Assembly (NCBI GenBank): GCA_964016885.1
Contig: OZ024742.1
Location: forward strand, 307,954,001 to 308,018,000
Direction: 5' to 3'
DNA length: 64,000 nucleotides
DNA from: Eledone cirrhosa
Lineage: Eukaryota
The notes below the pieces were generated by a model. The model was given only the letters and a program-made list of their open reading frames with translations, ran no database searches and was not told the DNA's origin. Shown piece after piece: positions 1,479 to 60,212 of the stretch. Position numbers and translations under genes: made by a program. The stretch's first letter is position 1. Every line of letters begins with the position of its first letter.

Positions 1479-2096
1479 TATATGTATGTATACATTTTTA
1501 TATATATGTGTATGTATGTGTATATATATATATATATATGTGTGTGTGTGTGTGTGTTTATATGTGTGTGTGTGTGTATTTTTATTTATGTGGTGGTGTA
1601 ACCCTTTGTACTTATGTGTGTGTGTACATTAGTGTGTGTGTATATATATACACATATATATATGTGTATATGATTATATGTATATATATATGTATATATA
1701 TATATATGTATATGTATATATATTTGTATGTAGTTGGTTGTGTGTGTATGTATGGTTTTATATGTATATGCATAATTACATACAGAGTTTTTTAATGCTT
1801 ACTTTTATTGGTTATTTGTTCCAGGAACTGTTGAGTGCTCTTAATCAGCTATAAACATTTATACCTATATTTTTTATTTGTCGTATGCCCTACTATTTGA
1901 AAACCCCTTCCTTCCCTTTATTTTTATTTTGTGTATGTATGTATATATGTATATATATATATATATATATATATATATATATATATATATATATATATAT
2001 ATATATATATATATATATATATATATATATATATATATATATATAAAGAATGAATAATAACAGGTAGACATCATAAAAAAGGTAATTTATTCCGTG

Positions 2097-2190
2097 TGCT
2101 TACAAATGTTTCCACGGTGGTAATACAGCCTAGTTATGCTATTTGCAGAACTCAAATATCAAATGCTGTGACTACTGTATCATCAGAGCA
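2097..2190 (-). ncRNA. Type I hammerhead ribozyme in the PLE 3' pLTR (helix II partly decayed)
   Basis: Minus strand: UGCU-CUGAUGA-UACAGUAGU...ACCACCGUG-GAAA-C-AUUU-GUA-AGCA. Helix I is UGCU/AGCA, helix III is minimal, cleavage triplet GUA. Confidence 0.75.
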
Positions 2191-2685
2191 GAATGGTTAA
2201 AATGCACAATGTAAATACGCTTAAGTGAGGTTATTGGAGAAGATAGAGTAGAAAAGGAAGAGAGAAAAGTAGGGGAGAGGGAGAGAGAGAGAAAGATATG
2301 CAGGGGTTGGAGAAATAGGAGAGAGTGGTTTGTAGATATCTTAATCAAAATGTTATGGTAGGGGTTTTATTATACTGGTTACTTTTAGAGAGATGCGTTG
2401 ATAGTCAAGGTTGGAATTATTTATTGCCCCAGAGGGCAGGTTCATAGATGTGGAGAGGGAGGTAGGCCAAAGGAGAGAGAGAGAGAGAGAGTGGAATGGA
2501 TATAGAGGGAGAGATAGAGAGGGGACAGACGAAGCCTATGGGGTGGGTGAACTTTGGGTTCGTAGTAGTAATCTGCGAATTGCACTGAGTTACCATTTAT
2601 AGTGATAAGCAGAGTATTGTCTTGTAGTGTGGGGGAAGAGAAGGTGGTTAGCTAGAAAGCGATGTTATAGTTACGGGTTCGAATG

Positions 2686-2928
2686 TTAAGTTATTTTATA
2701 GTGAGAGAACTTAGCTTTTAGTTTGTGGTTGCAGTATAATGATCGTTCGATTCTATCGTTAAGTAGTTTATTTTTGGATTTTAATATGTAAAAGAGTTCA
2801 AGGTTACATAACCTACAGTACTTCAATCCACTCCGATATGCACTTGCGCTGGAAAGTATATCCCATTTTAAGGTGAAATGTTGGTTGCGTTCACGGAGTT
2901 GCCAGGTCTTGTTGGCGAGCGTGGTCAC
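2686..2928 (-). pseudogene. PLE GIY-YIG endonuclease, C-terminal fragment
   Basis: T.LA..W.L, W.I, CxLCxxE, LN and CxH motifs shared with the other PLE endonucleases in the window. Confidence 0.8.
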
Positions 2929-3072
2929 ATCCTGATCACCGTTTTGTGACTACGCTCGCCAACAAGACCTGGCAACTCCGTGAACGCACCAACAGTTCAC
3001 CTTAAAATGGGATATACTTTCCAGCGCAAGTGCATATCGGAGTGGATAATTCAAATCCTGACACCAGGATTT

Positions 3073-56423: not shown

Positions 56424-58498
56424 ATGGATTTATACGAACTGGATTACTCCCTGAAGAACATTCCCACTCCCTCCAACCATGTTTACCAAAAGCTTCTCCT
56501 ACAAAAAGCGGAAGATGTCGTCAGACGCTTAAGATGGCGAGCCCTAGCTTTTGACGGCAACATTACAGGCACCAGTAACACCTTCAACCTGAAATCGAGA
56601 GCCTACCCTCCTAAGGTAACTGAACTTGCTCCTTTCAAAGCGGACCTTCTCGACTTAGTCGCTAACATTTCCTTTCGCAAACACCTTAAAACCTTTTAAA
56701 CTAAACTTAGGAATGATATTAAGAAATTTAGGTCTTCCAATAACACTTTCGTTCTTTCTGACAAAACTAATAATATTTACGAAGTCGACAACATCACTTA
56801 CAACCACTTCGTCCATAACGCTATTACTTCCAAATATAAGAAAGATAACCCTATGGCCTACCACGGCATTAATATAGAAGCCAAAGAACTTGCCGCCGCC
56901 CTTAAGTTAGATAAGAAGCTACAATCTCTAGCTAAGCGGGAGGTGTTCCTCACCCTGAAAGATCATAGGGTAGACTTTACTTCTAACCCCACATGTACCC
57001 GGCACGCACAGATATGGGACTAGTCAGTGAGGCCATACTTAGAAACATAGTTAAGACCATTAGGACCAAGTCCAACTTGTCCCAGTGGTAGAAAAGCGAC
57101 TTCGTAATTAAGTGGTTTAACTCCTTCAAATTCGAAAAAGCGACATTGTTCATTTTTACCCATCGATCTCAGAGACCCTGTTAAACAAAGCGTTTGACTT
57201 TGCTACGATTACACTACCGTCCATGGTTTAGACAGGGAAATCATCGCTCACTGCTGGAAAACTCTCCTCTTCAACAACGGAGTAGCCTGGGAAAAGAAGT
57301 CAACAACTTCAGACCTGTTCGACGTCTCCATGAGATCGTTTGACAGTGCTGACGTATGCGACTTGGTTGGCCTATTTATTTTAGACATATTACGTGTTAG
57401 AATCAGGGACTCCCAAACGGGAATATACCGCGACGATGGACTGACCTTATCGAGCCATAAAAGTGGTCACGACCTCGACCCGTTTAAAAACTACTTAGCT
57501 TCTACCTTCAATGAGTTAGGACTTAGGATAACAGTAGCTACCAGCCTCTCTACCATAGATTTCTTAGACATTAATTTAGGCCTTCGCAAGCACACCTGTT
57601 CCATAAGCTTAACGAAAAACTGAATTACGTTCACAGGGACTCATGCCACCCGCCACTGTTTTTAGAAACTTCGTAAATAATATCAGTACTAAAATCTCAA
57701 ACCTCTCTTCTAATAAAGCTATCTTTGACAGAGCGGCACCCTACTATAACACAGCGTTAGCTAACAGCGGCTTCTCGCAACCTATCACTTACTCTCCCAC
57801 TAACAACAACACCAATAAGAAAAGAAAGCGTAACAATAGACAAACTATCTGGTTCTCTCCTCCATTCTTACTCAACGTTAAAACCAATGTAGGCAAAACA
57901 TTTCTAGCCCTCTTAGATAGTCACTTTCCCATAATTCATAAATACCGCTCCATCTTTAACCGACACAAAGTAAAACTAGGATAGTCCTGCGCTAAGAACA
58001 TGAAGGCCCACATCACCAAGAGCTCTAAGAGCAACACCCCACCAGGGTGCTCTTGCCGTAAGCCCGAAGCTTGTCCACTTCAAAAGCAATGCAACACACC
58101 CGCTGTAGTTTATGAAGCTCTGGTCACCTCCAACCGACCAAATCAACCACAGCAGGTCAAATCCTATGTAGGTATGGCGGTGGGCCGATTTAAGGATCGC
58201 TTCCTGGACCACCAGTCGACCTTTAGGTACTCGGACAGACGTTCATCCACGAAACTCGCGAGCCACGAATGGTCCCTCAAGGACTTAAATATAGACTACT
58301 CCATTCAATGGAAAGCCATCGCTAATTTCCAAGCCATACGCAAGGGGCAATCCGTCGTTTGGACTATGTATTGATGAACGAATAAGTATTCTAAAGAGAT
58401 TAAGCAATAACGATTGCCTAAACTCAAGAAATGAATTATTCCCACGTTGTCCACACGTCTGGAAACACCTCTTACATAACTACAAAGCTCCGGTTTGA
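56424..58498 (+). pseudogene. PLE RT-GIY-YIG polyprotein with multiple stops and frameshifts
   Basis: Pieces in ORFs 56229-56699, 57330-57623, 57643-57984 and 58000-58374, plus the terminal GLCIDER...CLNSRNELFPRCPH. Confidence 0.88.
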
Positions 58499-58660
58499 AT
58501 TACAACAACATCCTAATTTTCTTATCAACTAGAAACTTTCAGACTTTCGCAGTTATCTCCTTTACACCTCTCGCACGCAATTTAGTATTGCCTGAGGGAA
58601 GTAACCGATTCTGTGCATGCGCGTTCGTACAGTTTTCCTTCCTGTTCCGTATAACTATGT

Positions 58661-58710
58661 CCATTACGAGCTGAAGATCCGCTAAGGTGAAACATTTGTT
58701 CTCGGTATGG
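58661..58710 (+). ncRNA. Minimal type I hammerhead in the 3' pLTR
   Basis: CCAU-UA-CGAG-CUGAAGA-U-CC-GCUAA-GG-U-GAAA-C-AUUU-GUU-CUCG-GU-AUGG. Predicted cut after 58700. Confidence 0.8.
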
Positions 58711-60212
58711 TGAACTAACTGTTGTGTAACCACTTCTACCTAACTCGTCACATGGACTGAGTGCTCTACCACTACGGATATTACCTTCCAGTGTTATACC
58801 ACTATATATATTTATACAGGATATTCGTAGATAAATGACAAGAAAAAATGGTAAATCTAGTACAAGAGAGCTTGTTTTGTTTATATTTAAATTCATACAC
58901 TTAACACGTATACGACACCTTGTGATCCGGTTTCCGGTTATGACTACTACTGTATAGAGAAGTGATCGTTCTAAAACTGGTGGCTCTCGCCAGAGAGGTC
59001 AGTTCAGAACTACTTTCTAAATATGTATACCAATGAATAATTAGAACGCATGTAATATAATAGTGATATATGTTCTTTGAATGTTTGGTGTCGTTGATTG
59101 ATGTGACATTAAAACAGCATGTTTGCTATGACATTAAAGCAGCATGTTTGCCATTTTTGTGGCTAATTTTAGTGTCCTCTCCATTGATGCTTATCATTAG
59201 TTCGAATCAAACGTTCTCTACTTCATAAAATAGAAATTTGAAAATGAAAATAGAACAAAATTAAATGTGTGAGAATGATTAATACACCTACCGTATATGC
59301 CGAAAGGAATAGTGCCATTTAAGAAAAAGCTATTACTGTTTGAATTTTGTTTCATCAAAAGTGATAATTTACAAATTATACATTGAAATAGAAAACCAAA
59401 CATCGGAATCGGAAGTGTTGGCGTCTGCAACAGCTTTACCGCATCAAATGTCATTGATGTAGAGATAATTGAATTCAATATTGAACAGTATGATAAAAAA
59501 TGTCGTGTGATTGATCAATTTCCGGCAAAAATTCAAGTGCATATTCTAAGGAATTATTTTGAAAGAAGCAAAACAGCTGAATAGTTATTAGTGTAAATTA
59601 TTATGTGTCTAAACAATATTCCTTAGTATGAATAAATATAAAATGAGCATAGACACAATCTAAAGTCTGAAATCAGTCAAATAATAACATGTGTAACCAA
59701 ACGCTTTATAACCCATCAAATATTGCAGTAACAGAAATCAGTGTGCGCTAACTTGCATAATGCATTACCAGCCACGGTAAACAGTAATGATAGGTGAATT
59801 GGCACATCCAATTCGCTGTTACGGCCACATTGGAAAGGTATATGATGTATTTAGTTACGTACATACTTCTATAAAAGATGTGAGTGATGGAGATAGCTTA
59901 TGAAGCTAATTCCAGCACTTGTGTTAAACTGTTTTGCGAAAAAAAGTCGTTTATATGTTTACATGTTTAAATATCTCGTGGCTTCGGTTAGATCCGGCAC
60001 AATTTCTGAGCACATGAAACTCTCTATCTCTCTCTCTCTCTCCTCTGTCTCTCTCTCAATCTCTCTCTCCTCTCTCTCTCTCTCTCTCTTTCTTTTTCTA
60101 TACTCTCTCACCTCGCTATCCCTCTCTTTATCCCTCTCTCTCCCTTCTCACTCTCTTTTTCTCACACTATTTATCTCGAAATATATATATATATATATAC
60201 ATATATATACAA

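Follow-up and report, generated by a model that had tools for sequence, protein, structure and literature searches.

The window analysed here is a 64-kb stretch of the Eledone cirrhosa genome (assembly GCA_964016885.1, 3.0 Gb; contig OZ024742.1, positions 307,954,001 to 308,018,000), with abundant microsatellites and fragments of LINEs (long interspersed nuclear elements) as well as of Penelope-like elements (PLEs), among which hammerhead ribozyme motifs are scattered (Table 1). The original prediction had described it as a dense community of self-cleaving retro-RNAs; the observation was confirmed, while its interpretation was partly supported. We consider it probable that this is a genome-average window of truncated PLEs and tandem repeats without open reading frames (ORFs), ending at (TA)n, likely inserted by PLE reverse transcriptase (RT)-endonucleases and each carrying a hammerhead motif, and that one tandem lineage carries a predicted hammerhead of the permuted type SGC, whose helix III likely holds a kink-turn.

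A strict type I descriptor (CUGANGA, GAAA and UH, with at least 4, 2 and 2 pairs in helices I, II and III) matched six places in the window, at 2097(-), 3073(+), 14436(-), 15352(+), 34018(+) and 58667(+), whereas 40 local dinucleotide shuffles gave 0.05 matches on average. A relaxed descriptor with one core mismatch and longer helices found five against 0.47 (15 shuffles). The motif starts predicted earlier were reproduced, and their excess over shuffled sequence was borne out. Copies that had been overlooked lay at 7195(-), 17475(-), 24806(-) and 32603(-), together with two permuted motifs at 31776 and 32409. Each of the eleven hammerhead families listed, named here by window position, is a dispersed repeat, with 754-4261 first-look candidates that are not to be taken as copy numbers. 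Nothing in the window reached an Rfam gathering score, which bears out the proposed invisibility of the motifs as far as Rfam thresholds go, and a separate Rfam search of 31700-34100 gave no ribozyme match. Minimum-free-energy folding did not discriminate, with z above -1.7 in 11 of 13 motifs.

The strict descriptor found 117 motifs in 99 evenly spaced 10-kb stretches of large contigs (990 kb, 0.03% of the genome), or 7.6 per 64 kb, against 0-4 in four shuffles. Other forms in this sample numbered 25 for U3-A8 (3-5 in shuffles), 5 for U4C (0-1) and 4 for SGC (0-1). Thus motifs stand above shuffled sequence in the window, but its density equals the genome average, which rules out the local hotspot implied by a ribozyme-dense place. 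The 117 motifs fell into 31 clusters, in line with the many unrelated families proposed, and 85 had a palindromic helix III. Extrapolation gives ~3.5x10^5 motifs in the genome, or 2.7x10^5 without the largest tandem cluster. This estimate of about one hammerhead per 10 kb lies above published animal counts, such as the ~9,000 of Xenopus and the 126,247 of axolotl for the system of PMC4209133, which were obtained with different descriptors. The largest cluster of the sample is a 311-bp tandem hammerhead repeat (L165:8749-9682; L195) that is absent from the window.

Six families (2097, 3073, 9388, 25222, 33604 and 58667) are 3' pseudo-long terminal repeats (pLTRs) of PLEs. A type I motif follows an RT-GIY-YIG ORF in five of them, and in 9388 the ORF is accompanied by an incomplete motif. 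An endonuclease lay upstream on the same strand in 9 of 11 loci of the 9388 family and, for 25222, in 3 of 5 long and 1 of 11 short loci; a full inverted pLTR-ORF-pLTR copy of the 3073 family was present in one of 12 long loci (L233). The suggested link to Penelope pLTRs and retrozymes therefore stands, with PLE ORFs at a fixed distance upstream of six families and ORF-less tandem units for others, whereas the idea of a separate set of self-cleaving retro-RNAs does not, as 6 of 11 families are truncated ends of protein-coding PLEs. The Hydra-clade hallmarks RWR, DKT, the CxCx5C linker and a (TA)n target were all found in 56200-58500, and CxCx5C recurred in three more fragments; Pfam did not recognise five Hydra-like fragments. 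The Hydra clade is described as inserting into (TA)n and carrying hammerheads (Craig et al. 2021, PMC8557442), and our elements, assigned by motifs, share its RWK-like, DKT and CxCx5C features as well; it comprises few families there, compared with several high-copy families here.

All nine families tested end at preferred sites adjoining (TA)n: in 163 of 172 copies the cleavage site had a (TA)4 run no more than 300 nt away, usually at either of two favoured offsets. Likewise, (TA)5 occurred within 300 nt downstream of 80 of 116 strict motifs compared with 26% of random positions, which upholds (TA)n as a common target. In the PLE tail of PMC11167929, reverse transcription has two internal start sites and its start is not homologous to the target. 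The families in the window are alike in having two preferred 3' ends, but here short ends fall at TA-containing words, suggesting pairing with the target. In the mechanism we propose, a Hydra-type GIY-YIG endonuclease would nick (TA)n, and reverse transcription would begin within the element's RNA, 10-205 nt beyond the ribozyme, at either of two AT-containing sites, usually stopping early, with a second priming event giving an inverted arm. Since the ribozyme adjoins the start of copying, it would be kept in nearly every insertion, which would explain the hammerhead density.

Arrays of the 483-bp unit carry the same insertion signature in elements that code for nothing. At 21 loci they consisted of the unit only, in up to 7 copies, with opposed arms at 12 loci. 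Among complete arms (one incomplete arm was dropped), 31 of 32 ends lay at unit position 80 or 188-193, ending in TATAT or CATAT, and 30 ran straight into (TA)4. The unit holds one hammerhead and is ORF-less, its longest stop-free run being 81 codons. Such units of 480-750 bp would be copied round more than once, probably from ribozyme-released circular monomers, and likely borrow PLE enzymes. The arrays fit copying round a monomer, and assembly polishing could also even out units. It is unlikely that they arose by local unequal crossing-over after a single-pLTR insertion, the model of 10.64898/2026.07.22.740005, instead of by several rounds of reverse transcription on a single RNA: two arrays have variants shared by 2 of 7 and 3 of 7 units, which agrees with crossing-over, but the arrays are dispersed, 99% identical and non-integer in unit number, share the same two end sites, and at three loci have a variant in every covering unit of both opposed arms. 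Read as products of repeated reverse transcription, the 483-bp arrays reveal the priming site and manner of retrozyme insertion and bear on the question of rolling-circle copying versus local expansion. In some copies of the other ORF-less family, 6374 (window 5950-6900; L036, L039), a tRNA-like short interspersed nuclear element, its A and B boxes recognised by eye, lies in antisense orientation at the unit's TA run and seems to have spread together with that unit.

The permuted motifs at 31776 and 32409 lie in a 633-bp tandem repeat at 31.8-32.5 kb. In both, GAAA lies upstream of CUGAUGA (at 31837 and 32470) and the cleavage triplet upstream of GAAA, and the resulting order site-GAAA-CUGAUGA is a non-circular permutation. 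A type II or III assignment was ruled out, because no GAAA partnered by helix III follows the core and the internal GAAA covaries. Relatives were collected by searches (families a, e and f) and from flanks (b, c and d), and 22 of 51 distinct copies were aligned. Pairs were counted on 18 rows from five subfamilies that we chose; family e was excluded, since it has a linker shorter by one base that received no gap in the alignment. Across these rows 94% of cells were paired, with compensatory change in 13 of 19 pairs (5 of 7 in helix I, 7 of 11 in helix III), compared with 0 of 500 shuffles, a test inflated by kinship of the rows, and 30-50% paired in slid controls. The core nucleotides, the A15.1-U16.1 pair and H17 were invariant in all 18 rows, and family e, by inspection, forms the same helices with different letters. 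The SGC candidate is well supported as a conserved structure, and its catalysis is predicted.

Helix II is minimal and is the weak point of the candidate. In 15 of 18 rows it amounts to a single pair, which shows U-A/A-U exchange, and it is missing in the window subfamily; in family e two G-C pairs follow a bulged A. The register of distal pairing is variable. No I-II helix was found in the candidates on inspection of the alignments, which was not a systematic search. Helix III has a 3-nt bulge and invariant GA/GA in 18 of 18 rows, and a plain 3-nt bulge in family e. The kink-turn consensus is a canonical helix ending in C-G, a 3-nt bulge and tandem G.A/A.G pairs; its sequence pattern is present in all 18 rows, and a kink-turn in helix III is likely. 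With the cleavage-site strand first, GAAA second and CUGAUGA last, helices I and III would cross; distal helix III would be bent back by the kink and could then continue directly into helix I. Additional diverged families with the same order, in which a G-C pair forms the helix II base, occur at L194:7421-7502 and near 2582 of L291.

The motif could instead cleave only in trans or in multimers, with blocks of neighbouring units building an ordinary hammerhead (one unit might supply site and CUGAUGA, and the next GAAA), so that the monomer would be no true permuted ribozyme. The elements are tandem, helix II is minimal and metazoan PLE hammerheads act as dimers (PMC4209133), all of which would suit this arrangement. 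Against it, the linkers are short and of fixed length, the kink-turn signature falls where a cis fold needs a bend (although covariation cannot separate cis from trans), and monomeric SGC ribozymes cleave in cis (PMC10085705); we regard cleavage confined to trans or to multimers as improbable.

The carriers of the SGC motif are ORF-less tandem units of 534-750 bp that end 10-100 nt past the core at (TA)n in three families, with inverted copies at 5 of 22 loci in family a, 5 of 14 in family f and 0 of 14 in family e. A tight SGC pattern matched 19,962 places in the genome compared with 3 for the reversed control, and a covariance model recovered 9 copies from the 990-kb sample, including 2 training rows. 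The same pattern had 0 matches in the JGI metagenomes, with the viral and GTDB collections unscanned. For 5' junctions we took 40 of 80 listed places, picked by sequence downstream of the site only (10 further family a copies are known to be intact): 3 begin exactly where cleavage is predicted, and another 3 begin at other positions within 70 nt. At L361, several short repeats each restart at the predicted cleavage site and look as if reverse transcriptase had jumped repeatedly at the RNA 5' end.

These junctions bear on whether the motifs, including SGC, are mostly non-catalytic now and kept either as structured signals to which PLE protein binds or as passengers next to the priming site. Ribozyme mutants leave PAc insertion in vitro unaffected (PMC11167929), subfamilies with C3.A8, U4C or A.A defects are abundant, and the 5' junctions of eight type I families are not piled up at the cleavage site. 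However, subfamilies with exchanged helices keep their catalytic nucleotides unchanged, U3-A8 covaries within the core, and some SGC copies start at the predicted site; a loss of catalysis in most motifs appears the least probable of the alternatives we weighed. Defects in or beside the core nonetheless mark three abundant subfamilies, 33604 (C3.A8), 32409 (A.A at the helix II base) and 36664 (U4C), and their abundance suggests that weaker cleavage may not hinder spread.

Several results weigh against our reading of PLE-inserted elements with working hammerheads. No parent was found for the 34018, 36664 and 50450 families, nor an autonomous partner for the tandem families. Of 35 variants covered by at least two units in the 483-bp arrays, 5 were in all units, 27 in a single unit and 3 in some, and with so few array-wide a circular monomer is weakly supported. 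SGC covariation rests on five related subfamilies of our choosing, and the 5' strand of helix I could pair with post-core bases instead, an alternative that is 85% paired but has compensatory change in only 1 of 6 pairs; it may be an off-state. Two of the three SGC junctions at the site are explicable by TATA microhomology, young subfamilies continue to spread with damaged cores (33604 and the window SGC subfamily), and cleavage in vitro was lacking in 8 of 9 dimers of Xenopus retrozymes (10.64898/2026.07.22.740005).

Type I motifs, PLE ends and the twister-LINE of this window are known in kind, and the novelty claimed for the diverse hammerhead set was overstated, such sets having been published (PMC4209133, PMC8557442, 10.64898/2026.07.22.740005). 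In PLE pLTRs, minimal type I hammerheads likewise form many unrelated families per genome (Cervera and de la Pena 2014, PMC4209133), with a palindromic helix III, an unpaired base before helix II, a U3-A8 variant and opposed copies. Metazoan non-LTR (long terminal repeat) retrozymes, proposed to be PLE derivatives (10.64898/2026.07.22.740005, PMC7229834), are also ORF-less tandem units of low GC with one hammerhead per unit and coexisting PLEs; ours differ in unit length (483-750 bp), in the SGC form of one lineage, and in opposed arms and two fixed ends at (TA)n that are direct traces of PLE-type insertion. Type-SGC ribozymes (HRIMA-1 and variants; Eckert et al. 2023, PMC10085705) share with our candidate the site-GAAA-CUGANGA order, an intact core, a short linker between stems I and II and covarying stems I and III. 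Those data all come from assembled metatranscriptomes, with examples from unidentified RNA agents, and the paper leaves open how non-circular permutations arise and fold. Here the motif lies in tandem retroelements of an animal genome, at ~20,000 copies, with a minimal helix II and a kink-turn signature in helix III; the supplement of that paper, which is the part searched for it, does not contain the word 'kink'.

The SGC order in an animal genome is new here, earlier reports of it being confined to environmental RNA. In the literature searched, which largely excluded subscription papers, 'type-SGC' occurred in PMC10085705 only, and neither an animal SGC nor a natural kink-turn hammerhead was described. 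We see an even balance for the fuller proposal that the ~20,000 copies represent an active type SGC hammerhead carried by Penelope-mobilised retrozymes and the first to come from anything other than metatranscriptomes, in which the kink-turn would solve the permutation geometry and may let host 15.5K/Snu13 switch cleavage on, and whose diverged subfamilies would record the evolution of the permutation. Because this order sits in a retroelement on chromosomes, one that has thousands of copies and has diverged into several subfamilies, its structure, kinetics and origin become directly testable. What the window adds to known systems is the genome-wide scale, the retrozyme insertion signature and, above all, the SGC candidate.

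Table 1. Ribozyme motifs and retroelement features of the window
Feature	Position	Strand	Remark
Type I hammerhead, 3' pLTR of Hydra-like PLE	2097..2190	-	endonuclease upstream on same strand in 7/11 other loci
Type I hammerhead, pLTR of Hydra-like PLE whose 3' untranslated region (UTR) is long and microsatellite-rich	3073..3132	+	
Twister-P1-like ribozyme, 5' end of RTE LINE	3284..3334	+	
Frameshifted APE endonuclease and RT ORF, RTE-like LINE	3599..5442	+	
3' half of 6374-family hammerhead	5876..5913	+	
Type I hammerhead, cleavage site damaged in window copy	6374..6465	+	ORF-less tandem unit, ~480 bp
PLE reverse transcriptase fragment	7948..8808	-	GIY-YIG at 8751-8995 (+)
CUGAAGA, helix II and GAAA only, pLTR of canonical RT-GIY-YIG PLE	9394..9418	+	
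483-bp retrozyme-like insertion, two opposed arms	14248..15510		inside 4.8-kb (TA)n tract
Type I hammerhead of 483-bp unit	14436..14519	-	palindromic helix III
Type I hammerhead of 483-bp unit	15352..15435	+	palindromic helix III
33604-family hammerhead	17475..17569	-	inverted pLTR of Hydra-like fragment 17733-18275
Hydra-like GIY-YIG endonuclease with CxCx5C linker	17733..18275	+	
Type I hammerhead, pLTR of Hydra-like PLE	25222..25276	-	window copy G8C
Type I hammerhead, 34018 family	27602..27652	-	helix II damaged
Hydra-like RT-endonuclease fragments	29281..30779	+	
SGC hammerhead candidate, copy 1	31776..31856	+	5'-truncated in distal helix III; predicted cleavage after 31793
ORF-less tandem element with SGC motif (unit 633-646 bp)	31783..32495	+	ends at (TA)n
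SGC hammerhead candidate, copy 2	32409..32489	+	predicted cleavage after 32426; 633 nt from copy 1
33604-family hammerhead	32603..32698	-	core damaged
Type I hammerhead with C3.A8 core, pLTR of Hydra-like PLE	33604..33699	+	endonuclease upstream in 3/11 loci
Type I hammerhead	34018..34068	+	strict motif
Type I hammerhead, U4C core	36664..36754	-	long helix II
Type I hammerhead, short inverted insertions	50450..50510	+	palindromic helix III; one helix I mismatch
Hydra-clade PLE ORF fragments	56229..58374	+	RWR, DKT, CxCx5C
Type I hammerhead, 3' pLTR of 56.2-58.4 kb Hydra PLE	58667..58704	+	endonuclease upstream in 6/11 loci

Some of the individual motifs required correction. The 9388(+) motif, proposed as a hammerhead, has a core and helix II only; helices I and III are not in register in any of the 18 copies listed, so it is not shown to be a hammerhead, and relatives lie at 7195-7219(-) and 24806-24830(-). 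At 36664(-) a hammerhead is present, but the CUGAUCA reading of its core was wrong and was rejected: the core, CCGACGA (U4C), lies further upstream and is exact in 8 of 14 copies. The motifs at 6374, 25222 and 27602 have intact relatives, while the window copies are mutated. The 33604 family is a C3.A8 subfamily of a U3-A8 family, its 25 copies comprising 15 CUGAGAA, 9 UUGANAA and 1 deletion; an N7-deleted core was dropped because U3-A8 relatives show variable N7. Core-variant counts for 33604, 36664 and 9388 are biased towards the query. No ORF was found at a fixed spacing for 34018 (19 loci), 36664 (16 loci, one same-strand match) or 50450 (21 loci), and a degenerate relative of 50450 lies at 5531-5618.

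Head-to-head 3' halves of the 33604 family alone form very short insertions at 36394-36504, 17130-17330 and 50600-50660, and in 590 kb half matches of this family numbered 19 compared with 3 full ones. The 3' UTR of the 3073-family PLE (window 1470-1930; L230, L233) has (TA)n and (TG)n runs hosting other insertions, so that these PLEs may seed their own targets. The pLTR of the PLE at 29281 (31556-31663 and 28240-28347) has a GAAA-palindrome-UA half motif, with no core found upstream.

The twister proposed at 3285 proved to be a twister-P1 match (3280-3334; 41.4 bits, E 1.1e-5, under the gathering score, among the matches listed), but it is part of an RTE LINE and not of the hammerhead retro-RNA set. 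It precedes the APE-RT ORF, and in 11 of 11 other copies the first base falls no more than ~4 nt from the predicted cut; the twister would act separately, cutting the 5' end of the LINE transcript. Perere-3 T-variants (PMC8501958) similarly have a twister at the 5' end of an RTE LINE, start at the cleavage site and take the P1 5' strand from the flank; the element here differs in its low copy number (34 candidates) and often lies beside (TA)n. No target duplication was seen for it in the window.

Rfam microRNA matches in the window were microsatellite artefacts, the top ones arising from a near-perfect inverted repeat of more than 100 bp per arm around (AT)14 at 60200-60520. CR1-like LINE fragments lie at 20895-24009 (Pfam RT) and 10713-11600. 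A 250-codon frame with a CxC motif at 42108-42860(-), with no Pfam match, resembles the end of another non-LTR element.

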